Below are positions 3,879 through 63,080 of a stretch of DNA of 64,000 nucleotides, piece after piece. The DNA comes from an uncultured Gammaproteobacteria bacterium (lineage in GTDB: Bacteria > Patescibacteriota > Patescibacteriia > UBA9934): the NCBI GenBank assembly GCA_964414795.1, contig CAYPWV010000002.1, positions 5,057 through 69,056 on the forward strand, written 5' to 3'. How positions within the stretch are numbered: the first letter of the stretch is position 1; each line of letters opens with the position of its first letter. The notes below the pieces were generated by a model. It searched no databases. It was not told where the DNA came from and was given only the letters and a program-made list of their open reading frames with translations. Made by a program: the position numbers and the translations under genes.

Positions 3879-4040
3879 GATACTATTGAGTTTAGAAAAT
3901 CTTTACCGTGAGCGTATACTCATGTGTTCGTTCTGTATAGTTTGCAACGTGTACGATAGTCATCCAAAAAAAACATAAAACCTATACCATTTCTAATATC
4001 GGTTCCATGTGCCGTGAACCCATAAATTCATTTTGAGGCT

Positions 4041-4112
4041 AAAACAAAACAAAAAAATCTCTCGAGTCTGTTTGCGATCAATTTCATGATCCTGAGCGGA
4101 CTTGAGAGATTT
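4041..4112 (-). terminator. rho-independent terminator-like stem-loop for the minus-strand gene 4303..4953
   Basis: Arms 4056..4069 'aaatctctcgagtc' and 4099..4112 'gacttgagagattt' are inverted, with 1 mismatch. They are flanked by an A-run on the plus strand, i.e. a U-run downstream on the minus transcript. Confidence 0.4.
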
Positions 4113-4302
4113 TGTTTTTATTGGAGTTTATCGATTTCCAAATTTCTTTTTTACAATTTCAATTTTACCTATCGCACTATTCGTTCACATTTTTGTCGAA
4201 TATTAGCGGTGAAATGAATTTATGGGTTCACGGCATGTGGTTCCGAATAGTGAACGGGTTCAGAGCGGTGAATTGGAAAGGGTGGAAGACCGCCTTGCCG
4301 CA

Positions 4303-19499: not shown

Positions 19500-19510
19500 G
19501 AAAACAGTTA

Positions 19511-20434: not shown

Positions 20435-20445
20435 ACACGCACTTG

Positions 20446-21096
20446 TTATTTTGCCTGTTCAGCGAGTAAGCCGTCGATAAGAGCCTTGAGTGTATTGTAC
20501 GTCGGGAACTCCTCTACCGCCACGCCGTTTAGAAAGACGCTCGGCGTCGAGTTGACCCCTGCGGCAATGCCGTCCTGGCGGTCACGCTTGATTTTGTCTT
20601 CGTATGCGGAACTATTGATGGTGGCGGTGAACTTTTCCATATCAAGCCCAAGCCCTTCTGCGTAGGAAAGGAACAGTTCGGTCTGCGGCGTTTTCTTCTC
20701 GCCCCATTCAGACTGACGCTCAAATAGAATATCGAGCATCTCCCAATACTTACCCTGTTCTCCTGCGGCTTCGAGTGTCTTCGCGGCAAGCTCGGAGTTT
20801 CCGTGCAGGGGGAAGTAGCGAACCACGTAGGTAATCTGACCCGAGTAGTCCTCCAAGATTTGTTTGATCTGCGGATGCGCCGCGCGGCACGCCTCACACT
20901 CAGGGTCGAAAAATTCGACAAGCGTGATGGAGGCGTTTGGTACTTCCTGTTTCCAGCTATCTTCCCGCACAAGCGTCTCGTAAGCAATCGGTTCAGTCGA
21001 CTGGGTTTGGTTCGTCGTAGCCACGGCGATGCCGACAAAAATAAGAACAGTGGCAAGACCGATGCCGATCAGGACTTTTGCGTCATCGCTAAGCAT
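20446..21096 (-). CDS. DsbA-like thioredoxin-fold thiol:disulfide oxidoreductase
   Basis: N-terminal TM. 'FFDPECEACRAAHP' CxxC active site. Confidence 0.75.
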   Translation of the reverse strand: MLSDDAKVLIGIGLATVLIFVGIAVATTNQTQSTEPIAYETLVREDSWKQEVPNASITLVEFFDPECEACRAAHPQIKQILEDYSGQITYVVRYFPLHGNSELAAKTLEAAGEQGKYWEMLDILFERQSEWGEKKTPQTELFLSYAEGLGLDMEKFTATINSSAYEDKIKRDRQDGIAAGVNSTPSVFLNGVAVEEFPTYNTLKALIDGLLAEQAK

Positions 21097-21520
21097 ACTT
21101 TTTTATGAGACGGGTGTGAGTAATGAGAATAAGGGTAATGACGCTGAATGCCACAAGCGAAAGGAGCGGGATCGTAATGAAGCCGAACCATTCAAAGAAC
21201 TTTGTCGTGCAAGAAATGCCGAGGGTGCAGGGCGCAACGCTTTCCGGCAGAATCTTCCAATACAGGAGGTTGTGGTACACGGCGACGGCGAGGCCAGCGA
21301 GCGAAAGAGGCAGGGCGTACAGAGCGACCGCCTTGTCCTTGCGAAGAATACCGACGGCAAGGATTGTGACGAGCGGATACAGTGCGATGCGCTGGTACCA
21401 GCACAATACGCACGGCGGAAGATTCATGACTTCGCTAAAGTACAGGCTTCCCGCCATCCCAACGAACGCTTGCGCCCATGCTGCATGCGGAAGGTAGTCG
21501 ATCCATCGTTTTACGTTCAT
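21089..21520 (-). CDS. dsbB: disulfide bond formation protein B (DsbB/BdbC family)
   Basis: 'PPCVLCWYQRIALYP' and second Cys pair 'CTLGISC'. Four TM segments. Confidence 0.7.
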   Translation of the reverse strand: MNVKRWIDYLPHAAWAQAFVGMAGSLYFSEVMNLPPCVLCWYQRIALYPLVTILAVGILRKDKAVALYALPLSLAGLAVAVYHNLLYWKILPESVAPCTLGISCTTKFFEWFGFITIPLLSLVAFSVITLILITHTRLIKKYA

Positions 21521-21531
21521 AGACGAACGGA

Positions 21532-22197
21532 TTAATAATTAACGTAGGTCGTGATGTTCGCCTTGGCTCGCAATTCGGCGATAAGCTTTTGCGCCTCTTC
21601 GCTGAATTTACTATCCGCAATCTGGAGTTTTATTTGTTCTTTCATGGCATCCGGATTTTCTTCCGGAAGTGGAATGCCGCTCTCTGTGATGTATTGCTCC
21701 AACTCTTCATCTGTAACCGTCAGTTTTTCAGCAAGCAACTTTTTCATGGTCAACTGCGTGACAATGCTCTTGCGAAGGCTCTCCTCGGTAAAGCCCCGCT
21801 CAGCGAGTGCCGCCTCGAACGTTCCACCCGCGTCGGTCACGCTCGCCTTGATGCTATCCAGTTCATCCGTAATCTCTTGCGCAGAAACGGTAACGTCTTT
21901 CGCGAGAGCCTCGTTTGCAATGAGCCGTTCAACGATGAGCGCGTCAAGAACGTTCTTGCCGCCTTGGCGTTCAAGTTCCTGCACCACGCGAATCCTACTA
22001 ATCGGGCTTCCATCTACCGTGGCGGCAATAAAGACGCTCTTGAAGTAAAACAGTGTTGCAAGCGGGAGAACGATCACTGCTGCGATGACAATCATCTTTT
22101 TCTGTCGCGGTGTAAGGCGCTTTGATACTTGGACTTCAGGGACCTTCGGTACGTCAGTACTTTCAGGTAAAGGTTCTTGTGATATAGGTTCTTCCAT
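21532..22197 (-). CDS. SurA N-terminal-domain-like periplasmic chaperone (no PPIase domain)
   Basis: TM anchor, then 'ATVDGSPISRIRVVQELERQGG...LDALIVERLIANEA', typical of the SurA_N/PrsA N-terminal region. Confidence 0.5.
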   Translation of the reverse strand: MEEPISQEPLPESTDVPKVPEVQVSKRLTPRQKKMIVIAAVIVLPLATLFYFKSVFIAATVDGSPISRIRVVQELERQGGKNVLDALIVERLIANEALAKDVTVSAQEITDELDSIKASVTDAGGTFEAALAERGFTEESLRKSIVTQLTMKKLLAEKLTVTDEELEQYITESGIPLPEENPDAMKEQIKLQIADSKFSEEAQKLIAELRAKANITTYVNY

Positions 22198-22214
22198 AGT
22201 CAGAAACAGTTTGG

Positions 22215-22763
22215 TTATTTTTTACATGGTTTGGATGTCGCGTCGACGCTACACGCCCTGCATCCCTCGGTGATCGTTTTTGATGCAATCACGAGGGCGA
22301 TGACAACGACGAGGATCGAAACAAGGGTGATTTGCCATCGGTTGTTGAGGACGAACAGTACGCCGCCCGTTCCGAGGAATCCCAGGAATCCCGTCACGCA
22401 TGCCCCGCACGATGCTGTAGAGAGCACGGAGGCAAAGGTGGCGGAAAGCCCTCCGATGCCGCCGGTGATGACGGTACCCACGCCTGAACGCGCCCGAACC
22501 CTCCGCAAGTGGAAGAGATGCCACTGCATGAGGAGAAGGAGCGCGTTCAGGACGGAAAGGATGCCAAACATCGCGAAGTCGAGCCGCGTCATGATGCTCA
22601 GCTGGAACGGCAAATCGTTGCCGGGAATCAGCTTGACCGGAATCCAAACGAAGAGCCAGAACGTCGCAACGGTCACGACGATAAAGGCGACTCGTCGTGA
22701 TCCCGTTGCAAGCGTCTCTTTCGTGGCTTGTATAAACCTGTTTAAGGATTCCTGGGGGCGCAT
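22215..22763 (-). CDS. membrane protein with two CxxC motifs (possible thiol-disulfide oxidoreductase)
   Basis: 'TASCGACVTGF' in a TM segment and C-terminal 'EGCRACS'. Confidence 0.4.
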   Translation of the reverse strand: MRPQESLNRFIQATKETLATGSRRVAFIVVTVATFWLFVWIPVKLIPGNDLPFQLSIMTRLDFAMFGILSVLNALLLLMQWHLFHLRRVRARSGVGTVITGGIGGLSATFASVLSTASCGACVTGFLGFLGTGGVLFVLNNRWQITLVSILVVVIALVIASKTITEGCRACSVDATSKPCKK

Positions 22764-22764
22764 A

Positions 22765-23538
22765 CTACTTCGCTAACGCCGCATCAAGGAGAGTTTTGAT
22801 TTGTGCGAACGGAAGTGCGCCAGAAACAAGCTCAGCGTCTCCATTCGTATCAATAATGAACGAGCCCGGAGTTCCGGTAACACCCGCCGCCGCTCCACCA
22901 GCCGTATCGTCCTTCACGTGTTGAGCGTACTTTCCGCTATCAAGACATTCCTTGAACTTCGTGCCGTTCAAGCCGAGCTCCTCCGCGAGTGGGACAAGAT
23001 CAGTAAGGGCGAAGCCGGTTCCACCTGCCTCTCCACGCTCAAAAATGGCATCATGGTACTGCCAGAACGCATCATTGCCGCCAAGCTCGTTGGCGCATTC
23101 CGATGCCTCGGCTTCTTTTTGCGCATTGGCGTGGAATGAAAGCGGATAGTGACGGTAGACGACGCGAACGTCTCCGTCGTACTCCTCAAGGATCTGATCG
23201 ACCGTGGGTGCGAACTTCTTGCAGAACGGACATTCGAAGTCCGAGTATTCCACAAAGGTCACAGGCGCGTTTTTGTCACCACGAATATGGTCTGCGTCCG
23301 TGACTTCAGGAACCTCGCCCGTCGGTGCCTTGGTTTTGACGGTTGGAGCCGCTGCCGATGGTTGAGCATTCGCGACCGCGACCGTTCCCGTATCCGTTGT
23401 CTTTGCGAACAAGTTGTTGCCGCTCAAAAGACCAAAACTCGTGAGAAGCGAGATAAGCGCAACTCCTGAGACGAGCCCAAAGATAAAGCTCGTTTTGGAC
23501 GGCATACCGTCGAAGAATCCTTTTGTATCATTTTCCAT
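22765..23538 (-). CDS. DsbA-like thioredoxin-fold oxidoreductase
   Basis: 'EYSDFECPFCKKFAP' CxxC. N-terminal TM. Confidence 0.75.
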   Translation of the reverse strand: MENDTKGFFDGMPSKTSFIFGLVSGVALISLLTSFGLLSGNNLFAKTTDTGTVAVANAQPSAAAPTVKTKAPTGEVPEVTDADHIRGDKNAPVTFVEYSDFECPFCKKFAPTVDQILEEYDGDVRVVYRHYPLSFHANAQKEAEASECANELGGNDAFWQYHDAIFERGEAGGTGFALTDLVPLAEELGLNGTKFKECLDSGKYAQHVKDDTAGGAAAGVTGTPGSFIIDTNGDAELVSGALPFAQIKTLLDAALAK

Positions 23539-23579
23539 AGCAAAAATAAGATGAATAAATCCTCACGGACTTATCTTTG

Positions 23580-24002
23580 CTACGCGTCGCGCATCGGGCT
23601 GAAGTACGGTAAATAGCCTCCGTTCCAAGCGAACGGCCATGATTTTGCCCAAAGCCACCCCAGTTCTTTGTTCCGCTGTTTGATCGTGACGAGGGAAACG
23701 ACAAGGATGACGGAGAAGGCGATTGGCGTCTGTGGAGCCAAGGCGATGTCCGGAAGGGAAAATTCGGAGATTCTTGAGATGGTAGTTTGAGAGAAGATCG
23801 ACTGATGGCTATCGTTGAAGCTCCCAATTGAGTGATCTGTGCAGCACTCTGTATTCATCCCCACTATTTCCATGTGGTTCGAAGAGCCAAGCGGATGGCA
23901 GGTCACCATGAACATGAGCAGTGTGACGCAGAAAAACAGCGCCATGGTGAGATGACGGCTGAATTTCTGCCAGATTTTTCTGCTCAATTGTTCAAGATAC
24001 AT
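23580..24002 (-). CDS. hypothetical membrane protein
   Basis: ORF with TM helices only. Confidence 0.3.
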   Translation of the reverse strand: MYLEQLSRKIWQKFSRHLTMALFFCVTLLMFMVTCHPLGSSNHMEIVGMNTECCTDHSIGSFNDSHQSIFSQTTISRISEFSLPDIALAPQTPIAFSVILVVSLVTIKQRNKELGWLWAKSWPFAWNGGYLPYFSPMRDA

Positions 24003-24058
24003 GCGGGTATTGTAAGGGATTCCTGCCTTAGCTACAAACGTCTCTCCCTCGGATCTTT

Positions 24059-24460
24059 TTACTCGGCGTTGATCTCGAATTTGTACATTCCCATCGAACA
24101 GGTTCCCTGAAGCGTTCCTACCGCCAATGTCCCAATATTTACGTCTGTAGTCCCCGTTGATGGCAGATTCTTGCTGATACCAAGATCCGGAATGCGCACG
24201 GAGGAAGAACAGTCATATGCGCCATTTGTGGCAAATCGTAGAACGGTAGGTACACCAGCTTTAACGGTGCTCGCCTGTGGTGAGTAGCCGCCTTTGACGT
24301 TTATCGCAACAATCTGCTGTCCTGCCACCGTGCTCACGTTCGAACTCGCGTTGGCTGTGACAGCGGTCTGCGACTGTCCGCCTCCACGGAACAAGAGAAA
24401 TGCACCAAGAACGAGTGCACCGACGATGAGGAGTGTCTTTGTGTTGGAATTCATATGCAT
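24059..24460 (-). CDS. small secreted protein, possible cupredoxin-like or metal-binding fold
   Basis: Signal/anchor 'LLIVGALVLGAFLLF'. 'GTCSMGMYKFEI' C/M-containing C-terminus. Confidence 0.35.
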   Translation of the reverse strand: MHMNSNTKTLLIVGALVLGAFLLFRGGGQSQTAVTANASSNVSTVAGQQIVAINVKGGYSPQASTVKAGVPTVLRFATNGAYDCSSSVRIPDLGISKNLPSTGTTDVNIGTLAVGTLQGTCSMGMYKFEINAE

Positions 24461-24469
24461 TTGATGAGA

Positions 24470-25489
24470 TTAAAAGTTGAAGATGGGAGCGATGTACCCA
24501 GCGGCAACGAGTGCCGTGAGTATGTTGAACACGGCGAACGCGATGACGATCAGCCCGGCGGTCTTAAAGAACACGCCCTTGTTGCGGCTCTTCTCAGCGC
24601 TGAACGAGCTGAAGCTGATGAGCGCGAGCACCGGGAACGTCCCGAGCGCAAACGCGAGCATCGTGAATCCTCCCGTGAGGAAACTTCCCGTCGAAAGCGC
24701 GTACAGCTGCATGGACTGGGTGAACCCGCATGGCAGGAAGAACGTCGCAATGCCGACAAGAACTGGCGTGAGCGTGTGGTTGAGCTTGGAGACTCCGAGC
24801 GCGTACTTTGAGAGAAACTTCGGCATCGACGGCTGGAGCTTTTTCGTCCAATCGAACACGTCGAGAAGGTTCAATCCGAGTATGAGCATCACGAGCCCAA
24901 GGACAAGACCGAGCACGAGCGATCCGAAGCCGCTCAAACGAAAGACGGAGCCAAGCACTCCAATAACGCCACCCAGCAGAAAGAACGAAACAATGCGCCC
25001 TGCATGAAACATGATCTGCGGCCTCACCTTGTCTCCTTCCTTAGCAAACGTCGCAGACATAGAGAGCACTAGCCCACCAACGACTGCCATACAGGTGGAT
25101 ACGGAAGCGACCAATCCAACAACGAACGCTGTAACATAAGATGGCTTGCCTCCGCCAATCAGGTTCACGACTCCTGCTTTCTGCAAAAGGAAAAAGACGA
25201 TAATGAACGCGAGCGCGATGGGAACGGCATTCCTGAATTCTCCCCAGTGCTTTGTTTTTTTCTGCTTTTCAACCGACAACGCGTAGCCATGCTTGGCGAG
25301 TACGAGTGTGAGGTCGGCGGCGATTGTTGACGCGTCTTTTCCCTCAAAGTCGCCCGTCACTTCAACGCACTCTGCTTCAAGACTTGTCTTGGCGCGTGAT
25401 ACGTACGGAACATCTTGTAATTCGCTCTCCGTCATGAGGACGCAGGCACGGCAGTGCATGCCTGTCACATGGAAGGTATATTTTTCCAT
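24470..25489 (-). CDS. HMA (heavy-metal-associated) domain fused to a polytopic membrane domain (CcdA/DsbD- or TauE-like)
   Basis: N-terminal 'GMHCRACV' (GMxCxxC). Membrane part with conserved Cys ('VSTCMAV', 'FFLPCGFT'). Confidence 0.6.
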   Translation of the reverse strand: MEKYTFHVTGMHCRACVLMTESELQDVPYVSRAKTSLEAECVEVTGDFEGKDASTIAADLTLVLAKHGYALSVEKQKKTKHWGEFRNAVPIALAFIIVFFLLQKAGVVNLIGGGKPSYVTAFVVGLVASVSTCMAVVGGLVLSMSATFAKEGDKVRPQIMFHAGRIVSFFLLGGVIGVLGSVFRLSGFGSLVLGLVLGLVMLILGLNLLDVFDWTKKLQPSMPKFLSKYALGVSKLNHTLTPVLVGIATFFLPCGFTQSMQLYALSTGSFLTGGFTMLAFALGTFPVLALISFSSFSAEKSRNKGVFFKTAGLIVIAFAVFNILTALVAAGYIAPIFNF

Positions 25490-25493
25490 ATGC

Positions 25494-27785
25494 TTAGAGC
25501 GACTTCGTTTTCAGTCGAAGCGAATTGCCAACAACGGATACGCTCGAGAACGCCATCGCGAGTCCGGCGAAGACGGGGTTGAGGAGCCAGCCGAAGAATG
25601 GGAAGAACAGTCCTGCTGCCAATGGAATGCCGATGACATTGTACGCGAACGCCCAGAAGAGATTTTGCTTGATGCCGCGCATCGTCATTTTGGAAAGCGT
25701 GATTGCTTTGACGAGTTTGGAGATATCGCCGTGAAGCAAGGTGATGCCAGCGGATTCAATCGCGACATCTGTTCCCGTGGCCATCGCGATACCAACGTCT
25801 GCTCGTGCAAGCGCAGGAGCATCGTTCACGCCGTCCCCGGCCATCGCAACAACGTTTCCTTTTGATTGCAGTTCTTTGATCTTGGCGAGCTTGCCCTCAG
25901 GCAAGACTTCCGCAACAACTTCATCGACTCCGATCTGTTTGCCGATGAATGCGGCGGTGTTCTTATTGTCACCAGTGAGCATGACGACTTTTACGCCGAG
26001 TTTGTGCAGACGAGACACCGCTTCTTTCGCCTCAGGCTTTATCGCATCCGCAACCATCACAATGCCGATGACTTTTTCTTTGGTTGCGAGAATAACCGGA
26101 GTTTTACCTTCGAGTGTTTCCTTTTCCAAGGAGGACACATCGAACGATAACTTCAACGCCGTAACGAGCTTGGTATTTCCGGCGTAGTATTCGATTCCGT
26201 TTACAGTCCCTTTCAATCCTTGTCCCTTGATCGCTTCGAAGTTTTCTACGGGCGACAGGGTCAGTTTCTGCTTCTCGGCGTGGCTCGTAATTGCATGAGC
26301 GATGGGATGCTCAGACTTCTTTTCAAGCGATGCGAGAATGCTCACGAGTTCCTTTTCGTGAAGATCGGATAATGCACGAATAGAAACAAGTTCCGGTTTG
26401 CCGTTGGTGAGCGTTCCTGTCTTGTCGACAACAACCGTGTTCACTTTGTAGAGCTTCTCAAGCGTTGCCGCATCCTTCACGAGGATTCCTTCCTTGGCTC
26501 CCTTTCCAACACCTACGATAATCGCGGTCGGCGTGGCAAGTCCAAGCGCGCATGGGCAAGCGATAACAAGGACTCCAACGAACGAAACCAAACCGTTCGA
26601 CAATGCTTGCGAGAAGTCCATGTACTGACTTCCTACGATGAGCCAGGCAGCGAGCGTAAGGAATGCGATAACCAGAACAATTGGCACGAAGACGGATGAG
26701 ATTTTGTCCGCGAGTGCCTGAATGGGCGCACGGCTTCCTTGCGCTTCCTCGACCATCTTGATGATTCGCGCGAGCATTGTTTCCGAACCAACCTTGGTCG
26801 CCTTGAACGTAAACGAACCGTTCGTGTTCATCGTTCCCGAAACAACCGTATCGCCGACATCTTTCTTGATCGGCATCGGTTCGCCAGTCACCAGCGACTC
26901 ATCAACGTACGATGAACCTTCCGTGAGTACGCCGTCCACGGCAATACGACTTGCGGGCTTTACGATAATAAGTTCGCCGAGAACGACTTCGCTTGCGGGG
27001 ATCTCGACCTCCTCGCCGTCACGAATAACGAGCGCGGTCTTTGCCTGAAGATTGAGTAGTTTCTCTATTGCATCGCCGGTTTTGAGCTTGGATCGGGCTT
27101 CAAGGTATTTTCCAAGCGTAATAAACGCAACGACGACGATCGTTACGTCGTAATAGGTGTGCTCGACATTGAGGAACGGTGCGAGCGTTTCCGTAAAGGC
27201 GGTAATGACGAAGCTGTACAAAAACGCTGCGAGCGTACCAATGCCGATGAGCGTGTCCATGTTTGCCTTGCCGTAACGAAGGAATCGGTACAAGCCGAGA
27301 AGATACGGCTTGCCGACGACGAACAAGGTATACGTCGCCATGAGCGGAAGGAGGTGGTGAAAGAACTCACTCCACACGTACGGCATATCCGCAATCACGG
27401 AAAACTGAGCGAGAATGTCCCAGCCCATGATGAAAATGCTGACGATGGTCATGGGAATGACCGAAAGCACCTTGGTCTTCATGTCGGCAATCTCCGCAAG
27501 CTTCTCCTTTTTCGTCTGACTAATGCCAAGGTGAGCGGCATGCTCGCTCGGACTCATGTGCATGGACTCCGCCGTCAGAATGACAAGGGTATAGCCGAGC
27601 GGTTCGATTGTCTTTGAGAGTTGTTCGGGGTTGGTCTTAGCTGGATCGAAGGCGATCTTCGCCGCCTCGGTGCCGTAGTTCACTTCCGCCGAACTTACCC
27701 CGGCAGTTTTCTTGAGCGTCTTTTCAATGATGCCCGCGCAGGAGGCGCAGTGCATCCCTTTTATTTTATATGTGGTGGCATCCAT
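25494..27785 (-). CDS. copA: copper-translocating P1B-type ATPase
   Basis: 'GMHCASCAG' HMA domain. 'CPC' in 'IACPCALGLATP'. 'DKTGTLT'. 'GDGVNDAPAL'. Start set at MDATTYKIKG (27783-27785). Confidence 0.9.
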   Translation of the reverse strand: MDATTYKIKGMHCASCAGIIEKTLKKTAGVSSAEVNYGTEAAKIAFDPAKTNPEQLSKTIEPLGYTLVILTAESMHMSPSEHAAHLGISQTKKEKLAEIADMKTKVLSVIPMTIVSIFIMGWDILAQFSVIADMPYVWSEFFHHLLPLMATYTLFVVGKPYLLGLYRFLRYGKANMDTLIGIGTLAAFLYSFVITAFTETLAPFLNVEHTYYDVTIVVVAFITLGKYLEARSKLKTGDAIEKLLNLQAKTALVIRDGEEVEIPASEVVLGELIIVKPASRIAVDGVLTEGSSYVDESLVTGEPMPIKKDVGDTVVSGTMNTNGSFTFKATKVGSETMLARIIKMVEEAQGSRAPIQALADKISSVFVPIVLVIAFLTLAAWLIVGSQYMDFSQALSNGLVSFVGVLVIACPCALGLATPTAIIVGVGKGAKEGILVKDAATLEKLYKVNTVVVDKTGTLTNGKPELVSIRALSDLHEKELVSILASLEKKSEHPIAHAITSHAEKQKLTLSPVENFEAIKGQGLKGTVNGIEYYAGNTKLVTALKLSFDVSSLEKETLEGKTPVILATKEKVIGIVMVADAIKPEAKEAVSRLHKLGVKVVMLTGDNKNTAAFIGKQIGVDEVVAEVLPEGKLAKIKELQSKGNVVAMAGDGVNDAPALARADVGIAMATGTDVAIESAGITLLHGDISKLVKAITLSKMTMRGIKQNLFWAFAYNVIGIPLAAGLFFPFFGWLLNPVFAGLAMAFSSVSVVGNSLRLKTKSL

Positions 27786-43639: not shown

Positions 43640-43714
43640 TGGCTCCGGGGGAGGGGATCGAACCCTCGACCTGAGGATTAACAGTCCTTCGCTCTGCCGC
43701 TGAGCTACCCCGGA
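43640..43714 (-). tRNA. tRNA-Asn (anticodon GTT)
   Basis: Minus-strand sequence folds as a cloverleaf. Acceptor TCCGGGG/CCCCGGA (7 bp). D-arm GCTC..GAGC. Anticodon loop CTGTTAA. T-arm GAGGG-TTCGATC-CCCTC. Discriminator G and encoded CCA. Confidence 0.8.
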
Positions 43715-50790: not shown

Positions 50791-51264
50791 ATGCAGCCCT
50801 ACGTCATCGACATCATCTTCGCACTCGTTACCTGCGTATTCCTCATCACCGGATGGCGACGAGGATTTGTGCGTATGGCGGGTGGGTTGGTGAGTTTGGT
50901 GATTAGTATTGGGTGTGGGGTGTGGGGGGTAGGGTGGATCGAAGATACGTTGGGGATTCCGCTTTCCGCATCGTTCATCGGTTTGTTGTTTGCATTTTTG
51001 GTTATTGCCGTCATTGTGAGTGCGCTCGTGAATCTTGTCGTCACACTGCTCGATCTTGCACGTCGGCTTATTACGATGATTCCTGGCTTTGGACTTTTGC
51101 ATCGTTTGGCTGGTTCTGCTGTGGGAGTTCTTGAAGCCGGTGTGTGCATCCTCGGCGTAAGTTATGTTGCGATGTACATTCTTGCAGCCGGCGATATGCG
51201 TACACTGTTGCTTTCTTCTCAAGTTGTCGCCTACGGAGTACAGATCTTGTCTGTTATCGAATAA
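50791..51264 (+). CDS. cvpA: CvpA-family membrane protein
   Basis: Four-TM 157-aa protein with N-terminal 'IDIIFALV...ITGWRRGFV', typical of CvpA. Confidence 0.55.
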   Translation: MQPYVIDIIFALVTCVFLITGWRRGFVRMAGGLVSLVISIGCGVWGVGWIEDTLGIPLSASFIGLLFAFLVIAVIVSALVNLVVTLLDLARRLITMIPGFGLLHRLAGSAVGVLEAGVCILGVSYVAMYILAAGDMRTLLLSSQVVAYGVQILSVIE

Positions 51265-51365
51265 GACTATTAGTCATCCCGGGCTTGACCCGGGATCCAT
51301 CGCATCAAGAAAAAATAATTAAAAACGATGGATGCCGGATCGGTGTCCGGCATGACGAAAATGCT

Positions 51366-52217
51366 ATGCACCTCTTCGACTCCCACACTCACATCCACTT
51401 TCCTGCATTCGGCGACGACGTTGCACGCATTATGGAACAAGCGCAGCAAAAAGAGCTGGGCATGCTTACTGTGGGGACACTTGCGCCAACAAATGCGGCA
51501 GCGGTTGCATTTGCGGAGAAATACGACAACGTCTGGGCTGCGGTTGGCATTCATCCCTCGCACGTTCATCCGCTTGCGTTTCATGACGAGCACGAGCTTG
51601 CCGTAGGTGAAACACATCAAGGTATCGTGCAAGTTGATGGCGCTATCGACCTTTCCGATCTTCAGCAATATCTCACTCATCCAAAGGTAGTGGCGATTGG
51701 AGAATTTGGTTTGGATTTTTATCGATTGCCGGAAGATGTTGAGGCGGCAGAAAAAATAAAAGACGAACAGCGTCGTGCCGCAGCAGCGCATCTCGCACTT
51801 TGTTCGTTGCATCACAAACCTGCGGTAATCCATTGTCGTGATGCACATGCAGAGATGCAAGAGCTTATTGCTGATGAAATCGCCAAAGGAGGCCTTGCAC
51901 GCCGCGGCGTCATTCATTGTTTTACGGGCACACTTGAGGATGCGATGTGCTACATCGATCTTGGATTTTTTATTTCTTTTTCTGGCATTGTAACGTTTGC
52001 AAAATCATTACAAGAAGTTGCAAAACAAATCCCGCTTGCATCCATGCTCGTTGAAACCGACGCACCCTACCTCGCCCCCGTTCCTCATCGCGGCAAACGC
52101 AACGAACCCGCCTTTGTTGCAGACACCGTCACTTGCATCGCCGCTTTGCGAAATATTTCCTTCGATGAAGTTGCTTCTCAAACGGTCGAAAATGGGAAAG
52201 GTGTTTTTGGATTGTAG
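51366..52217 (+). CDS. tatD: TatD-family metal-dependent hydrolase
   Basis: 'LFDSHTHI' N-terminal His motif. 'AIGEFGLDFY'. 'VIHCRDAH'. 'LVETDAPYL'. Start at the internal ATG 51366. Confidence 0.8.
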   Translation: MHLFDSHTHIHFPAFGDDVARIMEQAQQKELGMLTVGTLAPTNAAAVAFAEKYDNVWAAVGIHPSHVHPLAFHDEHELAVGETHQGIVQVDGAIDLSDLQQYLTHPKVVAIGEFGLDFYRLPEDVEAAEKIKDEQRRAAAAHLALCSLHHKPAVIHCRDAHAEMQELIADEIAKGGLARRGVIHCFTGTLEDAMCYIDLGFFISFSGIVTFAKSLQEVAKQIPLASMLVETDAPYLAPVPHRGKRNEPAFVADTVTCIAALRNISFDEVASQTVENGKGVFGL

Positions 52218-52233
52218 TAAGTTGGGTATTGAT

Positions 52234-52357
52234 GTGTCATCCTGAGGGAGATTTCAAGCCGACCGAAGGAACTTCTTGTAACCACAAACTATCAACTGAT
52301 AACCATTTGTTTTTCCAAAGATCCTTCGGTCGACGTAGCGCTCCCTCAGGATGACAC
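52234..52357. repeat. long hairpin / MITE-like inverted-repeat element
   Basis: Perfect 17-bp terminal inverted repeat: 'gtgtcatcctgagggag' at 52234..52250 versus 'ctccctcaggatgacac' at 52341..52357. Inner inverted pair 'ccgaccgaagga'/'tccttcggtcga'. Confidence 0.6.
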
Positions 52358-52534
52358 ACTCACTTCCCCCATCTGCCGTCTGTCGTCTGCCGTCTTTCGT
52401 CCCTATTCATTTCCCACTAAACCACTAAACTGCCAACCCCGCAAAACTACTTGTTCCTCCACACATTGCACTTTTTGGCTTTTTGTGCTATACTTTATTG
52501 TCTTTTCATCTGGTTCTGACACGTTCAAAGCCAG

Positions 52535-52981
52535 GTGAAGATACCGGATTTCCACCCCCAATCTGCGAGGTCGTTCATGCCCGAAGTCACCCAGTTTTTC
52601 AACGATTTTCAGGCAAACAAGGCGAACAGGGTCTTTTTCGTCGGGCTGTCCCTCCTCATGCTTCTCGCCTCGCTTCTGTGCTTCCAGGCCGGACGCCAGG
52701 AGATCGCCGAAGTGGTGGTCTCGAAGGAGGTGGCGAACCTGCAGCTCCAAGAGCTGCTGCGGGAAAAAAACCAGGATCTCCGGCATGCCCGCCGGATCAT
52801 CGCCGGCCAACGGCAGGTCATCAACTCCCAGGGCCTCTCGCTCTGGGCGGCGAGCGTCATCCTCGAGGTCAACCAGGCTCGACTCGGAGACCTGGAGGTT
52901 CGTCACGGCGACGACCTCCGGCTCATCGACGAGCAGGCGGGGGTGATCAGCACCCTCGACCGGGCGTGCCGGGCGCAGTGA
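52535..52981 (+). CDS. hypothetical protein encoded in a markedly GC-rich segment (possible start at MPEVTQ, 52577)
   Basis: ORF in a locally GC-rich stretch. One TM helix plus a coiled-coil-like region. Own terminator-like hairpin at about 53000. The other frames here (52483..53067 +, 52403..52906 -) look like GC-driven artefacts. Confidence 0.4.
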   Translation: MKIPDFHPQSARSFMPEVTQFFNDFQANKANRVFFVGLSLLMLLASLLCFQAGRQEIAEVVVSKEVANLQLQELLREKNQDLRHARRIIAGQRQVINSQGLSLWAASVILEVNQARLGDLEVRHGDDLRLIDEQAGVISTLDRACRAQ

Positions 52982-53127
52982 CGGTTCTGAGCCTTTGGGC
53001 TCCGTGTGGCGGCTTCATCGTGGAGCCGTCTTTGTCTTTTTATAGAGAGTTGTATGTTTTAGCATGAAGCGAACGTAATCGTTCTGCTTCATGCTTTGAC
53101 CGTCTTTAGTGATTTCGGATACATTTC

Positions 53128-53709
53128 TTGCAAAGTATGAACATCCTTTCCATCTCAGACAACCAACTCGTCACCCTCATCAAAAACGGAGGTGTGGGTG
53201 TTTTGCCAACGGATACCGTGTATGGTTTGGTATGTGATGCAGCAAATCCAGCTGCAGTTGCAAAATTATATGCATTGAAACATCGGGAGCAAAAGCCTGG
53301 TACAACCATCGCTGCAGATGCGGATCAGATTATTTCTTTGGGTATTGCAAAAGATGCCGTGCAATCCGTCGAGCGATTTTGGCCAGGAGTGAGTATTGAG
53401 CTTTTGTGGGGAGAGCAAGGAATGTATCTCCATCAAGGAACAGGTCGATCGGCCTTTCGTGTAGTTGCCGACGAGAGTCTCAGACAATTTTTGCAAAAAA
53501 CAGGACCACTCCTTACGTCAAGCGCAAATCTTCCTGGTCAGCCGCCTGTAAATACGCTTGATGAAGCGCATACGTATTTTGGCGATTCGGTGGATTTTTA
53601 TGTGGATGGTGGCAATCTTTCCGGTCGACAATCGTCCACGCTTATCCGTGTAGTAGATGGAGTTGTTGAAGTTCTGCGTCAAGGATCGGTGGTTATTTCA
53701 AGAGAATAA
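53128..53709 (+). CDS. tsaC: L-threonylcarbamoyladenylate synthase (YrdC/Sua5 family)
   Basis: 'GVLPTDTVYGLVCDA', 'LLTSSANLPG'. Confidence 0.8.
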   Translation: MQSMNILSISDNQLVTLIKNGGVGVLPTDTVYGLVCDAANPAAVAKLYALKHREQKPGTTIAADADQIISLGIAKDAVQSVERFWPGVSIELLWGEQGMYLHQGTGRSAFRVVADESLRQFLQKTGPLLTSSANLPGQPPVNTLDEAHTYFGDSVDFYVDGGNLSGRQSSTLIRVVDGVVEVLRQGSVVISRE

Positions 53710-53752
53710 TTTTGACCATGATGATACGGTTCGGATATCATGAAATATAAGT

Positions 53753-55681
53753 ATGCTCTCCACAAACGACATTCGACAAAAATATCTTGCCTTTTTTGCA
53801 AAGCACGGGCACGCCGTTGTTGCATCATCTTCTTTGGTTCCCAACAATGATCCAACGACGTTATTTACCGGTTCGGGCATGCAACCCATGATTTCTTATT
53901 TGCTTGGAGAAAAGCATCCTGCAGGAACGCGTATTGTTGATAGTCAAAAGTGTTTTCGTTCGGGAGATATTGAAGAAGTGGGTGATAATCGCCACACCAC
54001 ATTTTTTGAGATGCTCGGCAATTGGTCACTTGGTGATTATTTTAAGCAAGAGCAAATTCCTTGGATGTACGACTTTCTTACCAAGGAAATTGGATTGAAC
54101 CCGGAACATTTATACATCACCGTTTTTGAGGGGAGCCCAGAGATCGGGATCGGGAAGGACGAAGAGGCGGTAGAACTTTGGAAAGCCTGTTTTGCAAAAG
54201 ATAAAATCGAGGCAGCTGCACTTGATGATGCCGAAAAACTTGGTATGCGTCCCGAGCTCAACGGACGAATCTTTTCGTATCCAGAAAAAAAGAATTGGTG
54301 GAGCCGTGCGGGAGTTCCTGCAAATATGCCCGTGGGTGAACCGGGCGGACCAGACACCGAAATGTTTTGGGATTTCGATCCAGACGAATCTAAGAGGTAT
54401 CACGAGAATTCAAACTGGGCAGGAGAAAAGTGTCACGTCAATTGCGATTGCGGTCGATTCATGGAAATCGGCAACAACGTGTTTATGCAGTACGTAAAAA
54501 CAAATACAGGTTTTGTCGAGCTTCCGCAGCGTAATGTAGATTTTGGTGGGGGATTGGAGCGTATTGCCGCAGCAGTCAACGGTGATCCGGATGTGTTTCA
54601 ATTAGATATTTTTAGTGAAGCAAAAGAGAAGATCACTGCTCTCTCAGGTTGTTCGTATCAAGGCGAAAACATGTACGCCTTCCGTGTGATTCTCGACCAC
54701 ATTCGTGCGGCAACGTTCCTTATTGGTGATGGGGTTTTGCCAGGGAATAAGGATCAAGGTTATTTTGTGCGCCGTCTCATTCGTCGTGCGGTGCGATTCG
54801 CAAAAAAGCTTGGCGCTGCGCAGGCAATCGTGCGTGCCGTTGCAGAAACGTACATCGATCAGTACAGCGATGCGTATCCAAGTCTTTTAGAAAAGAAAGA
54901 GGATATTTTGCGTGCACTTGAAGCTGAAGAAGAAAAATTTGCGAAAACTATCGAGCAGGGTCTTAAGGAGGTAGAAAAACTTGTTGGTCTCGGAATCCAA
55001 TACGTTCCCGATGGAGAGCAATTGCCTTATTATAATGAAGTTGATGTTAAGAAGGCATTTGATATCTATCAATCTTTCGGTTTCCCGTTTGAGATGATTC
55101 AAGAAGAGTTAGCAAGACGAAATCTTCGTTTAGATGATTTAAAATTTAAAAAGGAGTTTGACGACTACATGCGAAAACACCAAGACCTCTCGCGTGCAGG
55201 AGCAGAGCAAAAGTTTGCAGGAGGCTTGGCAGATCATTCCGAAGAAACGACGAAGTTGCACACTGCAACGCACTTATTGCATCAGGCACTGCGAACCGTT
55301 CTCGGTGATCACGTTGCACAAAAGGGAAGTAACATTACTGCTGAGCGCTTGCGTTTTGATTTTTCGCATACCGATAAAATGACGCCTGAGCAAATCAAGC
55401 ACGTCGAAGATATCGTGAACGAGCAAATTAAGCTCGATCTTCCCGTGCATTTTGAAATGCTTACGGTCGACGAAGCAAAAGCTCGCGGCGCAATCGGACT
55501 TTTCGGTGACAAATATGCAACGCTCGGCGATAAGATCAAGGTCTATTTCATGGGTGATTACAGTAAGGAAATTTGCGGCGGCCCTCACGTAGAGCATCTT
55601 GGCCAACTCGGCGGCATCAAGATCGCGAAAGAAGAAGCCGTTTCCGCCGGCGTCCGTCGTATTAAGGCGGTGTTGAGATAA
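53753..55681 (+). CDS. alaS: alanyl-tRNA synthetase, short (642 aa) form with catalytic and editing domains
   Basis: 'RQKYLAFFAKHGHAVVASSSLVPNNDPTTLFTGSGM' N-terminus. Editing 'HTATHLLHQALR' and 'CGGPHV'. Confidence 0.85.
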   Translation: MLSTNDIRQKYLAFFAKHGHAVVASSSLVPNNDPTTLFTGSGMQPMISYLLGEKHPAGTRIVDSQKCFRSGDIEEVGDNRHTTFFEMLGNWSLGDYFKQEQIPWMYDFLTKEIGLNPEHLYITVFEGSPEIGIGKDEEAVELWKACFAKDKIEAAALDDAEKLGMRPELNGRIFSYPEKKNWWSRAGVPANMPVGEPGGPDTEMFWDFDPDESKRYHENSNWAGEKCHVNCDCGRFMEIGNNVFMQYVKTNTGFVELPQRNVDFGGGLERIAAAVNGDPDVFQLDIFSEAKEKITALSGCSYQGENMYAFRVILDHIRAATFLIGDGVLPGNKDQGYFVRRLIRRAVRFAKKLGAAQAIVRAVAETYIDQYSDAYPSLLEKKEDILRALEAEEEKFAKTIEQGLKEVEKLVGLGIQYVPDGEQLPYYNEVDVKKAFDIYQSFGFPFEMIQEELARRNLRLDDLKFKKEFDDYMRKHQDLSRAGAEQKFAGGLADHSEETTKLHTATHLLHQALRTVLGDHVAQKGSNITAERLRFDFSHTDKMTPEQIKHVEDIVNEQIKLDLPVHFEMLTVDEAKARGAIGLFGDKYATLGDKIKVYFMGDYSKEICGGPHVEHLGQLGGIKIAKEEAVSAGVRRIKAVLR

Positions 55682-61268: not shown

Positions 61269-61286
61269 TCAGTCACGTCAATCAAA

Positions 61287-61322
61287 CAAAAAATCCTCGA
61301 TATTGCATCGAGGATTTTTTGT
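61287..61322. terminator. bidirectional rho-independent terminator between convergent rpsI and the minus-strand gene
   Basis: 'aaaaaatcctcgat-attgc-atcgaggatttttt': 8-bp stem, 5-nt loop, A-run and T-run on either side. Confidence 0.6.
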
Positions 61323-63080
61323 TTATCGATCACGTAACTTTGTATATACGTCTTCTACACCGTATTTTTTAGCTACTTCAGAAGGTGACATGCCGTTCTT
61401 GAGATCTACTGTCGCTTTTGCAGCTTGATTAAAGAGGAGAAAATCCTTTGAAGGATCCCACTTTGGATCATTGTTTGCCCTAATGCGCATGGCCTGTGCT
61501 TCGGTTTTTTGTGATTCATTAAGAACAATTGCGGCTAATACTGCCTGCTTTGGAGCGTTTGGTTTTAAACCAAGTGCTTCGAGCATACGGCCCCCACGTA
61601 ACCAAATGGTTTCATCAGGACCAAGAGCATTCTGAAGAAGTGCGGCGGGAACAGTGTCGTGCGTCTTGGTGCTCTCGAGAGAAGCACGATTTACCCCTGT
61701 ATCTCGTGAAGTCTTTCCGGAGACTGTTGCTGTTGAGCTTTTTTCTTGACGAGGAGCACGTTCGTTTACTTGGTGTGCTTGGCGAGGTGCTGGGCTGCTG
61801 TCGTAGCTTGTTGCAGGGGAAGGCGCTTCGTTTCCCCACTTTGCAAGATCGAGAATCTCGTATGCAGAGGTGAGATCAAGTGCTTGTCCAATGTGCATGT
61901 GCTTTGCCGCATCGCCTTCAAGATGATTTGCTCGACGGAGTGCTCGTACCATTTCGAGCGTTAATTCTCCGCTATCATCTGGTACGCCACTTTTTTCAAC
62001 GATCTGATCAATAATTCCCCAGGGAGTATCGCCCGATTGTGCATTGTAGGTCATGGTTCGACTTTCCGCAGGAGATTCTGCCTCGGCTCTTGGTGTGCGT
62101 TCATTGAGTTTGTGTGGTTGTCGGTAGGAGTCGGGAGAAGAGAGTGCTGAGGTAGTTCCTTGTGCTTTTGATTCCGTATCTTTCAGTGAGTCGAAACCAA
62201 GTTTTACCCCAAAGATTCCCGCAACAACCGCAACTCCGGTAAGAATGCTCGTTTTCCAGCGATTCAAAAAACTGGGTTTTTGTGGTGCCGCACTGAGCGC
62301 GGGGTCAAGATCCTTGTCGCTCAGTTCCTCGCTTGTCTTTGCTGGTTTTTTCGTTCTTTTTGGAGCGGGAGCAGCAGATTCGCGCACTACAAAAGATTCT
62401 TGAGGTTTTTGCGCTTCAGGAGTAGCAGGAACTTCTCGCACCCCCTCTTCGGGATCACTGAATTTTGACATTTCAAGAGGAGGGGCTTGTGTCGTAATAT
62501 CAAATGTTTCATCCCTTTCTTCTTTTCTGGTACGACTTTCGCGCGGAATATCATCCAATTCCGTTCCGGCTACTGCTTCTCCCACACCCTCAGCGCCAAT
62601 TTGTGCAAAGTTACGTTGTCTTTCTGATTTTGGTTCTGCACTTTTACCGGCTAGTTCTTCTGCTTTTTTACGTGCGCGAAGAAGGTGGTCTAATTCCGCA
62701 GCTCTTCTCAAGGAGTCCTGCAACTCTTTATCTTTTTGACGTACTTCTTCTATTGGACGACCAGTTCTCTGAGCCTCTGCAAGGTGTTCTGCATGCTTAG
62801 GATCACCGTAAAAGCCAGGTCTGAAGGCTGTTTTTGGTGGTCGATCTGCAACTTTTTCTACTGCAATATTTTCAGGTGCTGGTTGAGGATGCTTATCCGT
62901 GTATCTTCGAGCTCTTGCGCCTGTATCTGTCTTTTTAGGATCACTGCCTACTTCAGCCTCAGCAGCTTCAAGTTCGGCGAGCACATCTTTAAAAAAGAGA
63001 TCTTCTTCTGGCTCTCCATTGGGACCTGTATAGGTATGAAATTCTCTACCAGGACTTTGTAGATCGCGTGATTTTGCCAT
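61323..63080 (-). CDS. low-complexity, membrane-anchored protein with a possible LysM-like segment (585 aa)
   Basis: Long ORF. Pro/Glu/Lys-rich N-terminal half. Single TM 'ILTGVAVVAGIFGV'. 'YNAQSGDTPWGII...HIGQALDL' is LysM-like. Confidence 0.45.
   Translation of the reverse strand: MAKSRDLQSPGREFHTYTGPNGEPEEDLFFKDVLAELEAAEAEVGSDPKKTDTGARARRYTDKHPQPAPENIAVEKVADRPPKTAFRPGFYGDPKHAEHLAEAQRTGRPIEEVRQKDKELQDSLRRAAELDHLLRARKKAEELAGKSAEPKSERQRNFAQIGAEGVGEAVAGTELDDIPRESRTRKEERDETFDITTQAPPLEMSKFSDPEEGVREVPATPEAQKPQESFVVRESAAPAPKRTKKPAKTSEELSDKDLDPALSAAPQKPSFLNRWKTSILTGVAVVAGIFGVKLGFDSLKDTESKAQGTTSALSSPDSYRQPHKLNERTPRAEAESPAESRTMTYNAQSGDTPWGIIDQIVEKSGVPDDSGELTLEMVRALRRANHLEGDAAKHMHIGQALDLTSAYEILDLAKWGNEAPSPATSYDSSPAPRQAHQVNERAPRQEKSSTATVSGKTSRDTGVNRASLESTKTHDTVPAALLQNALGPDETIWLRGGRMLEALGLKPNAPKQAVLAAIVLNESQKTEAQAMRIRANNDPKWDPSKDFLLFNQAAKATVDLKNGMSPSEVAKKYGVEDVYTKLRDR

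Follow-up and report, generated by a model that had tools for sequence, protein, structure and literature searches.

The tatD–tsaC interval of a Patescibacteria genome: a probable composite of a dispersed palindromic repeat and an old GC-rich orphan gene

The region between the genes tatD and tsaC was analyzed in a 64,000-nucleotide stretch of DNA, referred to below as the window (assembly GCA_964414795.1, contig CAYPWV010000002.1, positions 5,057 to 69,056 of the forward strand). The sequence was deposited as an uncultured Gammaproteobacteria bacterium and is placed in the Patescibacteriota by GTDB. A preliminary description of the sequence had reported a perfect inverted repeat, short tandem repeats, a GC-rich (guanine plus cytosine) open reading frame (ORF) and strong hairpins in this region. 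It had read them as a horizontally acquired insertion, combining a structured element with a foreign gene, or as regulatory RNA. We propose, with a probability of about 0.6, that the tatD–tsaC interval is a lineage-specific composite of separable parts and not one inserted unit. A single acquired unit fails as an explanation because the parts separate in related genomes: the locus L082 carries the GC-rich gene without the palindrome, L097 carries half a palindrome together with other genes, and L089 has the palindrome in two other spacers. The interval is mostly ordinary "junk plus orphan gene" biology, with no departure from known kinds of features.

The interval and its flanking genes contain the following features.

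51366..52217, + strand: tatD, TatD-family hydrolase (Pfam PF01026, E = 8e-72)
52233..52358, no strand: palindromic repeat element of 126 nucleotides (nt) (inverted-repeat search, folding, family alignment)
52359..52465, + strand: G-poor, pyrimidine-rich spacer, A22 C45 G10 T30 (Tandem Repeats Finder, composition, alignment)
52403..52906, − strand: antisense ORF of 167 amino acids (aa), picked by the gene caller on Logan contig L001
52466..52494, + strand: promoter of the GC-rich gene, TTGCAC, 17 nt, extended −10 box TGcTATACT (read from the sequence)
52503..52541, + strand: leader stem-loop near the inferred 5′ end of the transcript (alignment to L082, folds)
52577..52981, + strand: GC-rich orphan gene, 134 aa; GC at the first, second and third codon positions (GC1/2/3) 0.71/0.35/0.84; one homologue
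52989..53040, + strand: 3′ end of the GC-rich gene, with hairpin GAGCCTTTGGGCTC (52989–53002), terminator stem (53008–53030) and then TTTGTCTTTT (fold, terminator scan)
53061..53095, + strand: stem-loop of 15 pairs with a TAAT loop and one bulged T (fold −24.5 kcal/mol, z = −6.9)
53096..53125, + strand: tsaC promoter-like site, TTGACC, 18 nt, TACATT (consensus scan)
53137..53709, + strand: tsaC, Sua5/YciO/YrdC family (Pfam PF01300, E = 1e-38)

The interval in related genomes

Related loci were gathered through TatD matches, TsaC homologues and exact-protein look-ups, and one of them, L089, through a metagenome match. The closest genome is the Patescibacteria metagenome-assembled genome L002, whose TatD is the best genome match with 83% amino-acid identity; the TatD proteins of the relatives are 75–83% identical to that of the window where measured. 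The gene order metG–cvpA–tatD–slot–tsaC–alaS, in which the slot is the tatD–tsaC interval, is kept in L002, L089, L096, L097, L099, L100 and L101. The TsaC of L101 shares 66% identity with that of the window, and L101 represents a more distant relative. Two further contigs cover the interval itself. The Logan contig L001 (SRR16481186) is 100% identical to the window over 52329–53995 and begins inside the palindrome; palindromes are places where assemblers tend to break. L001 may stem from the same reads as the window. The second contig, L082 (1.4 kb), comes from a different sequencing run (SRR8893622) and shows the same gene arrangement as the window. The agreement of both L001 and L082 with the window excludes that the GC-rich segment is an artefact of assembly or a chimera.

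In L101, tatD and tsaC lie only 2 nt apart (TAG-gt-ATG) and four genes abut, whereas the gap between the two genes measures 0.3–0.9 kb in all relatives closer than L101. The interval is thus extra in comparison with L101, and to this extent the proposed insertion stands; the idea that a structured element and a foreign gene entered as one unit does not, as the parts separate. The comparison of the spacer across the relatives shows that the promoter is shared, and that the palindrome and the gene content vary separately.

The GC-rich gene

The compositional jump noted in the preliminary description is real and the composition is far from uniform. In 200-nt windows the GC content climbs from 0.45 to 0.685 (52800–52999) and drops to 0.445. 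In 300-nt windows it reaches 0.67 at 52676, which is the maximum of the 64 kb and about 4 standard deviations above the mean (0.468, standard deviation 0.051). Three long ORFs overlap in this segment. The 148-aa ORF that had been described is present at 52535–52981 (GC1/2/3 = 0.70/0.32/0.81). However, a start at ATG 52577, giving a protein of 134 aa, is likely to be the more plausible one, with GAGG at 52567–52570 as the ribosome-binding site 6 nt upstream. The codon usage of the ORF is strongly periodic, and the GC3 of 0.84 deviates from the 0.50 ± 0.10 found for the long ORFs of the window. The 167-aa ORF on the minus strand mirrors the 148-aa ORF codon for codon, and only the plus frame shows the GC pattern of a real gene. 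The minus-strand ORF is judged to be a by-product of the high GC3 of the plus strand.

The 134-aa protein consists of a short N-terminus, one transmembrane helix (residues ~19–36) and a long helix, in agreement with the transmembrane and coiled-coil character assigned to it earlier. AlphaFold2 predicts a single continuous helix over residues 2–133 (pLDDT, a per-residue confidence score, 81). The protein ends in the conserved sequence RHGDDLRxIDxQxGVISTLDRACRAQ, and its C-terminal GVISTLDRACRAQ is identical in the homologue of L082. This homologue, P0001 (136 aa), is the sole one found in a HMMER scan of 1.84 billion representatives (phmmer E = 2.7e-29, BLASTP identity 54%), and it is encoded between tatD and tsaC of L082, at the same locus. 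Word-indexed protein searches gave nothing with the window protein, and a two-sequence profile returned only P0001. Pfam, PADLOC and PHROGs gave nothing for the 134-aa protein, for P0001 or for the slot proteins of the relatives. For the 134-aa protein Pfam contained no match at E ≤ 0.1, and at E ≤ 1 only a sub-threshold match to Reticulon (12.6 bits against a cut-off of 31.8). The scan of viral contigs revealed no relatives of the protein.

The genes of the window and of L082 share the ribosome-binding site, the ATG and the stop codon and differ by an in-frame indel of two codons. The transmembrane helix has remained hydrophobic in both proteins despite the sequence change. The synonymous divergence (dS) between the two genes is 0.58, and that of the neighboring end of tatD is 0.65; the ratio of nonsynonymous to synonymous divergence (dN/dS) is 0.62 for the gene versus 0.12 for tatD. 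Because its dS equals that of the tatD end, the GC-rich gene has diverged in step with its flanks. The comparison shows the gene to have been, as far as these sequences tell, inherited vertically since the split of the window and L082 lineages, to evolve fast and not to be a recent arrival. The recent foreign gene of the preliminary description is not borne out: the dS matches that of tatD, the promoter is orthologous in the relatives, and no donor-like homologue was found. Of the marks of a recent genomic islet, the deviant composition is seen. The orthologue at the same site of L082, with a dS of 0.58 versus 0.65, speaks against such an islet, as does the fact that the interval is missing only in the distant L101. 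Neither a donor lineage nor a mobility gene was identified, the 1.84 billion representatives containing the orthologue only and the viral contigs no relative.

The GC-rich gene would be an old resident behind an ancestral promoter. We infer that its GC-richness is most simply the residue of an old foreign origin. The numbers would fit an ancient transfer from a donor rich in GC, with partial amelioration since then, although the searches revealed no donor.

It is very unlikely that the palindrome, the repeats, the GC-rich gene and the hairpins came together as one horizontally acquired cassette, in the form of a foreign insertion flanked by a miniature inverted-repeat transposable element (MITE). 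Such a cassette would account for the largest GC jump of the window, for the deviant GC3, for the missing interval in L101 and for the orphan status of the gene. It is weakened by L082 and L097, in which the parts are found independently, by the promoter, which is common to relatives carrying other slot genes, and by the dS of the gene, which equals that of its flanks. The other border carries neither another copy of the palindrome nor a direct repeat, an integrase or a tRNA, and the searches named above revealed no donor homologue and no viral relative.

Whether the GC-rich segment codes for the 134-aa protein at all can be weighed on similar grounds. The alternatives, a structured non-coding RNA or the 167-aa gene of the minus strand, draw on the even spread of substitutions over the codon positions in comparison with L082, on the antisense frame, which is open in both lineages, and on the choice of the minus-strand ORF by the gene caller on L001. 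The L082 copy (513–923) also folds far beyond its shuffled versions (z = −8.2). This value, however, is largely due to a run of Lys codons pairing with a run of Phe codons and to a stem of 13 bp without a conserved counterpart in the window. The messenger RNA of the window gene is not unusually structured (z = −1.8), which does not support a structured RNA, and Rfam finds nothing. The strong three-base periodicity (GC3 > GC1 > GC2) exists only in the plus frame. A plus-strand promoter, the GAGG–ATG pair and an intrinsic terminator are correctly ordered and conserved, and the hydrophobicity of the transmembrane helix is kept. The minus-strand ORF crosses the promoter and its ends are not conserved. 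The segment probably codes for the plus-strand protein, and either of the two alternatives is highly improbable.

The lysines of P0001 are clustered ahead of the transmembrane helix, which suggests that the N-terminus lies inside the cell and the helix outside. We infer for the 134-aa protein a cytoplasmic N-terminus, one transmembrane helix and a long, probably coiled-coil helix outside the cell; the protein would be an accessory envelope or surface protein. It has no match to the divisome families PF04977 or PF04999. The protein is not expected to be a core part of the divisome because it is fast-evolving and replaced by unrelated small membrane proteins in the sister lineages.

The promoter and the variable slot

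The GC-rich gene is preceded by a promoter whose −35 box matches the consensus at just three of six positions, which is why the consensus scan missed it at 52466–52494. The same architecture, TTGCRYTTTTT-N4-TTTTYNRCTAT (TTGCRY-T-run-N4-TTTTYNRCTATnnT), was read in the window, L082, L002, L096, L097, L099 and L100. Because the pattern occurs once in the 64-kb window with 0 occurrences expected by chance, the slot promoter is regarded as orthologous and not as a generic consensus. The similarity of the slot among the relatives ends just after the −10 box, and what follows differs from one subgroup to another.

Window and L082: protein of 134/136 aa with one transmembrane helix and a long helix
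L096 and L097: Cys-rich ORF of ~119 aa and an ORF of 64–71 aa with two transmembrane helices
L100: the same two-transmembrane ORF, preceded by an ORF of only weak similarity
L099: two-transmembrane ORF of 74 aa
L002: mini-ORF of 31 aa with one transmembrane helix

The protein of the window and L082 and the two-transmembrane protein of L096, L097, L099 and L100 are not diverged versions of one gene, as hhalign assigns this relation a probability of 2%. The slot genes of L096, L097 and L100 are GC-rich too, reaching 0.60–0.71 in 100-nt windows, and the GC3 of the two-transmembrane ORF is 0.75–0.82. In the slot of these three relatives (L096 2868–3400, L097 2868–3423 and L100 1672–2368) a GC-rich region lies upstream of the conserved two-transmembrane ORF, with hardly any codon periodicity in the first part. 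Throughout the window's clade the slot opens with the shared promoter, behind which come a gene for a small membrane protein and a terminator, and the gene varies by subgroup.

This variation could mean that the slot is a recombination-driven cassette locus, in which the conserved flanks (promoter plus leader on one side, gene 3′ end to tsaC start on the other) anchor the swapping of divergent surface-protein alleles. In comparison with L082 the window is a mosaic: the leader is ~100% identical, the center 55–60%, and the stretch from the gene 3′ end to the tsaC start 97–100%. A similar mosaic exists among L096, L097 and L100, where the ends of the slot are 84–94% identical and the amino-acid identity of the center is 27–31% (58% for L096 and L097), and a different gene stands behind the one shared promoter in each subgroup. 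Swapping of this kind is nevertheless quite unlikely. Each group is represented by just two to three sequences, the dS of the center equals that of the flanking genes and fits plain fast divergence, and neither a recombinase nor silent donor copies were seen in the window.

The palindrome and its family

The palindrome starts 15 nt past the stop codon of tatD (TAG 52215–52217, followed by an in-frame TAA). The inverted repeat reported there earlier is real, and its perfect outer arms are 18 nt and not 17 nt long (52233–52250 versus 52341–52358). The inner pair, given as 11 of 12 bp, also exists and is complementary at 14 of 15 positions (52260–52274 versus 52318–52332). The RNA folds with −62.4 kcal/mol on the plus strand and −71.4 kcal/mol on the minus strand (z about −9.7), and none of 200 shuffles was as good. 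Single arms fold through ATCCT..GG / CC..AGGAT with −7 to −12 kcal/mol, their stems being weak and interrupted. The palindrome also yields two mirror-image spurious ORFs of 40–41 aa with the motif CHPEG (52229–52354 on the plus strand and 52237–52359 on the minus strand).

The palindrome is a member of a family whose ends, TGTCATCCTGAGGGAG ... GACCGAAGGATC, are conserved and whose center varies. A metagenome scan, in which only the two 14-nt outer arms at the correct spacing served as the query, revealed 13 further loci with both arms, at a locus GC of 0.365 to 0.73. The inner arms GACCGAAGGATC / GATCCTTCGGTC, which were absent from the query, are also present in 11 of the 13 loci, and the centers are unrelated. 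The segment between outer and inner arms varies among the loci in a complementary manner (CGCAGC/GCTGCG, CGAAGC/GCTTCG, CCCTAGC/GCTAGGG). The locus L089 contains two copies that are 94% identical, lie in opposite orientation in the metG–cvpA and cvpA–tatD spacers and so flank cvpA; it also carries degenerate right arms, all within 5.5 kb. In L097 the left half of the palindrome, consisting of an outer and an inner arm, stands exactly at the tatD stop, with the stop codon inside the arm. The palindrome is absent from L082, L096, L100, L099 and L002. An ordinary terminator hairpin takes its position in L096 and L100, and just a short GTCATCC hairpin in L082. Copies beyond this one, which the preliminary description had suggested looking for in the rest of the genome, were found in the metagenome loci, L089 among them; the window itself contains only one.

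In two high-GC contigs the family element is intergenic, beside a gene for an HD-domain protein in one and beside yceD–plsX in the other, and not beside a transposase. The DNA on either side of 15 copies contains no duplicated target site; as a rule the palindrome is lengthened by T...A. In the loci fetched no complete insertion sequence with the ends of the family was seen; no search aimed at one was made, the pattern search spanning at most 600 nt. None of 72,556 plasmids matched a canonical member of the family in a BLAST search, the viral-contig scan for the two-arm pattern gave 0 matches, and full-text literature searches for the arm sequences returned unrelated primers only. Rfam at its gathering thresholds reported only the tRNA at 43643 in the window and 0 matches in 16 related loci. 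A permissive E-value scan of 51200–53200 gave only far-sub-threshold look-alikes of miRNA precursors. The palindrome looks, by its sequence, like a copy of a dispersed, non-autonomous palindromic repeat family of the REPIN or MITE kind (REPINs being paired repetitive extragenic palindromic, REP, sequences). The MITE-like element suspected before is supported to this extent. It would spread as REPINs do, its hairpin DNA being recognized by a transposase of the tyrosine or HUH type.

The palindrome would double as the 3′-end stem-loop of the tatD transcript, since the ordinary tatD terminator of the relatives is missing here; in L096, L097 and L100 the tatD terminators fit the intrinsic pattern. 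An intrinsic terminator consists of a GC-rich stem directly followed by a U-tract. The palindrome has no U-tract, its plus strand continuing with CACTCACTTCCCCC, and the terminator scan reports nothing there. It is unlikely that the palindrome is a fixed functional structure (a tatD terminator, an attenuator or a protein-binding cruciform) instead of a mobile repeat. Its great stability, its place 15 nt past the stop codon, where the relatives have a terminator, its single copy in 64 kb and the related half element at the same site of L097 are what a fixed structure would show. A fixed structure is, however, hard to reconcile with the 94%-identical copies in two other spacers of L089, with members in unrelated contigs of 36–73% GC whose centers are unrelated, with the absence from five relatives, and with the lack of a U-tract and of an Rfam family.

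Tandem repeats, leader and hairpins

The short tandem repeats described after the palindrome were recovered by Tandem Repeats Finder. The 7-nt unit TCTGCCG occupies 52372–52401 with 3.4–4.3 copies, or as a 14-nt unit with 2.1 copies, and the 8-nt unit CCACTAAA occupies 52414–52430 with 2.1 copies. The spacer core ATCTGCCGTCT...TCTGCCGT is found again upstream of tatD in L002, with an alignment score of 34 against a maximum of 28 in 300 shuffles. The repeats lie in a G-poor module of the spacer, found again ahead of genes in relatives; beyond this recurrence no evidence for a function of the spacer was seen.

Two non-coding blocks are nearly unchanged between the window and L082. The block 52486–52548, which covers the −10 box and the early leader, is ~100% identical, and the block 53005–53141 contains one mismatch, apart from a 35-nt insertion in L082. 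For comparison, the identity is 70–95% at the tatD 3′ end, falls to 70–80% in tsaC and is 55–60% in the middle of the gene. The leader hairpin forms in both the window and L082, with z scores of only −1.8 and −2.0. The terminator-like hairpin placed near 53000 by the preliminary description corresponds to the stem 53008–53030 with its T-run.

The last hairpin upstream of tsaC is also real. It lies at 53061–53095 and not at 53070–53105, contains 15 pairs plus a bulged T, and follows the terminator, its end directly adjoining the −35 box of the promoter-like site of tsaC. L082 has this hairpin and a second copy 90 nt upstream, within its 35-nt insertion, that differs at nine positions. The second copy keeps all 15 pairs, four of the changes being compensatory, whereas slid controls pair at 33–47%. 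A covariance model detects the hairpin at this locus and twice in L082 and nowhere else in the window or the 11 related loci scanned, and the hairpin is therefore not regarded as a dispersed repeat. The folding, Rfam and covariance analyses of the two strong hairpins, the palindrome and 53061–53095, thus show both to be stable and without an Rfam family, and the latter to co-vary. We suggest from its sequence and position that the 53061–53095 hairpin insulates the tsaC promoter or serves as a backup terminator or as an operator or binding site. A regulatory RNA, the second option of the preliminary description, is not supported for the palindrome, which has no Rfam family, is absent from the closest relatives and has a variable center. 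It is possible for the leader hairpin and the 53061–53095 hairpin, both of which lie in the ~100% conserved blocks.

The ATG of tsaC is located 12 nt past TACATT and has no Shine–Dalgarno sequence. Sites of the type TTGACC-18-TAyCAT stand about 12 nt ahead of the ATG of both tsaC and alaS (53096–53140 and 53712–53755), again without a Shine–Dalgarno sequence, and tatD lacks one too; the GC-rich gene has GAGG. This pattern suggests that the housekeeping genes tsaC, alaS and tatD may be expressed in a near-leaderless manner.

Other palindromes and GC-rich spots

A further palindromic element is located on the other side of tatD, beyond the stretch covered by the preliminary description.

51273..51356, no strand: second palindromic element, between cvpA and tatD (inverted repeat; −41.3 kcal/mol, z = −6.4)

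It consists of two inverted arms, GTCATCCCGGGCTTGACCCGGGATCCATCG / CGATGGATGCCGGATCGGTGTCCGGCATGAC, around a 23-nt AT-rich spacer, and each arm alone forms a clean hairpin of 8–9 bp (~−14.5 kcal/mol). Apart from the GTCATCC start it is unrelated in sequence to the palindrome at 52233–52358, and no further copy was found in any locus. The gene tatD is therefore bracketed by palindromes. The cvpA–tatD spacer of L097 (1650–1760) holds a different long palindrome, GTAAGGGCGTAGCATTTCA ... TGAAATGCTACGCCC, and further ACGTCAC repeats. As the cvpA–tatD spacers of the window and L097 hold different palindromes, the spacers of this gene cluster collect palindromic elements. Downstream of tatD, L089 (1–290) contains direct repeats AAGAAGTCCCCGACGTTAGGCATTGCCCTGAGG..CCGAAGGGAGGGG, with the contig ending inside one of them, and so another type of repeat in the same slot. 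Palindrome arms of the GTCAT type also reach into the 3′ ends of real genes, whose last residues and stop codon they provide, as in tsaC (...SSFRA*, L002 4760–4800) and tatD (...SDLSF*, L097 2720–2735).

GC-rich ORFs occur in the tsaC–alaS spacer as well. In L002 (4930–5480, GC 0.58–0.675) the ORF is interrupted by two N gaps and encodes an AT-rich signal-anchor start (MKKKIFKILSLLLSLALSW...), coiled-coil repeats of the LLEE type and a poly-proline run. In L101 the spacer contains a GC-rich (0.65), proline-rich ORF of 64 aa; the window has just 43 nt there.

Elsewhere in the window, a MITE-like element of ~248 nt is located at 3999–4246, in a low-GC intergenic region between two minus-strand genes. 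It has near-perfect terminal inverted repeats of ~35 nt (TCGGTTCCATGTGCCGTGAACCCATAAATTCATTT / complement) and an inner palindrome (4048–4119) resembling a bidirectional terminator. The region 19500–25500 shows a raised GC content of 0.53–0.58 in 500-nt windows and of 0.60–0.61 in 300-nt windows near 22226–22401; with a GC3 of 0.67–0.71 its long ORFs exceed all other large genes of the window. At 61284–61324 a hairpin, AAACAAAAAATCCTCGAT / ATCGAGGATTTTTTGTTT, has a perfect stem of 18 bp, a loop of 5 nt and A/T runs on both sides; it is probably a bidirectional terminator.

Weight and meaning of the composite reading

Several observations weigh against the reading of the interval as a composite of a mobile repeat and an old protein-coding gene. 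Only one copy of the palindrome is present in the 64 kb scanned, so that a multi-copy repeat is only putative in this genome. No transposase is linked to the palindrome family, and the neighbors of the two high-GC copies are housekeeping and signaling genes. Classical REPs carry a GTAG-type tag, which the termini of the family lack. With its U-tract missing, the palindrome is no more than a putative terminator. As regards the gene, the differences between the window and L082 hardly vary from one codon position to the next (32/30/36). In both lineages, moreover, the antisense frame is open, with an amino-acid identity of 52% versus 54% in the sense frame; both features point to weak selection at the protein level. 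By a rough estimate the dN/dS of the gene is below 1 with marginal significance. The choice between an insertion in the clade of the window and a deletion in L101 depends on a single outgroup, and recent recombination between lineages, instead of function, could have made the flanking non-coding blocks so nearly identical.

The analysis has consequences for annotation. Short spurious ORFs arise from the palindrome, for the GC-rich gene the gene caller settled on the wrong strand, and in the relatives such elements give real genes false C-termini and stop codons (tatD in L097, tsaC in L002). Patescibacteria genomes are small and are usually thought to be repeat-poor; here a conserved housekeeping cluster has been invaded repeatedly by palindromic elements of different types. 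The small membrane protein of the slot changes from one sublineage to the next. If the slot proteins are exposed to the host cell or to phages, the locus would offer a handle on surface variation in episymbionts. Since the repeat family spans very different genomes, a census against HUH and tyrosine transposases could identify its mover. The interval is of modest interest, owing to the breadth of the palindrome family and to the variable, promoter-equipped slot. As a tentative proposal that we hold to be less probable than not, the TGTCATCCTGAGGGAG...GACCGAAGGATC palindromes may form a cross-phylum family of non-autonomous hairpins, present in contigs of 36–73% GC as well as in streamlined Patescibacteria, that is absent from Rfam and not described by sequence. 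Their 15-nt ends and 12-nt subterminal arms would be recognized by a widespread unlinked enzyme. In the same proposal the tatD–tsaC slot could be a promoter-equipped site at which fast-evolving, GC-rich surface-protein genes are exchanged among episymbiont lineages.

Comparison with known systems

The 134-aa protein resembles FtsB, FtsL, DivIC and the i-spanins of phages in architecture only, namely in a length of ~130 aa, a short N-terminus, one transmembrane helix and a long helix. It differs from them in having no Pfam or PHROGs match, only two known members and no phage context.

Among the hairpins, the stem 53008–53030 with its T-run fits the pattern of an intrinsic terminator. The 53061–53095 hairpin differs from it in having just a short, interrupted T-run (TTTGACCGTCTTT), and the 126-nt palindrome in having no U-tract.

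Bacterial MITEs include Correia/NEMIS, ERIC and RUP. The palindrome shares with them the small non-coding size of ~100–130 nt, the terminal inverted repeats and the location between co-directional genes, and it is likely to be co-transcribed into mRNA as a stabilizing or processing hairpin. It differs in the lack of a target-site duplication in 15 copies and in a center that is not conserved across genomes, and a parent insertion sequence with the same ends was not seen in the loci fetched.

REPINs are paired REP sequences that are mobilized by RAYT tyrosine transposases (Bertels & Rainey 2011, PMC3116915; PMC3337134). Like a REPIN, the palindrome pairs two inverted REP-like arms across a spacer into one long hairpin, and either arm taken alone is an imperfect palindrome too. 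It is also intergenic, non-coding and free of target-site duplications, and single (half) arms occur too. The differences are the family termini, TGTCATCC instead of a GTAG-type tag, and the copy number, one in 64 kb here and usually tens to hundreds for REPINs. The ends of the family are further found in contigs of 36–73% GC, whereas REPIN–RAYT systems are described, in a preprint, as mostly lineage-bound and vertically inherited (bioRxiv 10.1101/2022.05.22.493013). Because target duplications are lacking and the arms are self-palindromic, a REPIN fits the palindrome better than a DDE-type MITE does.

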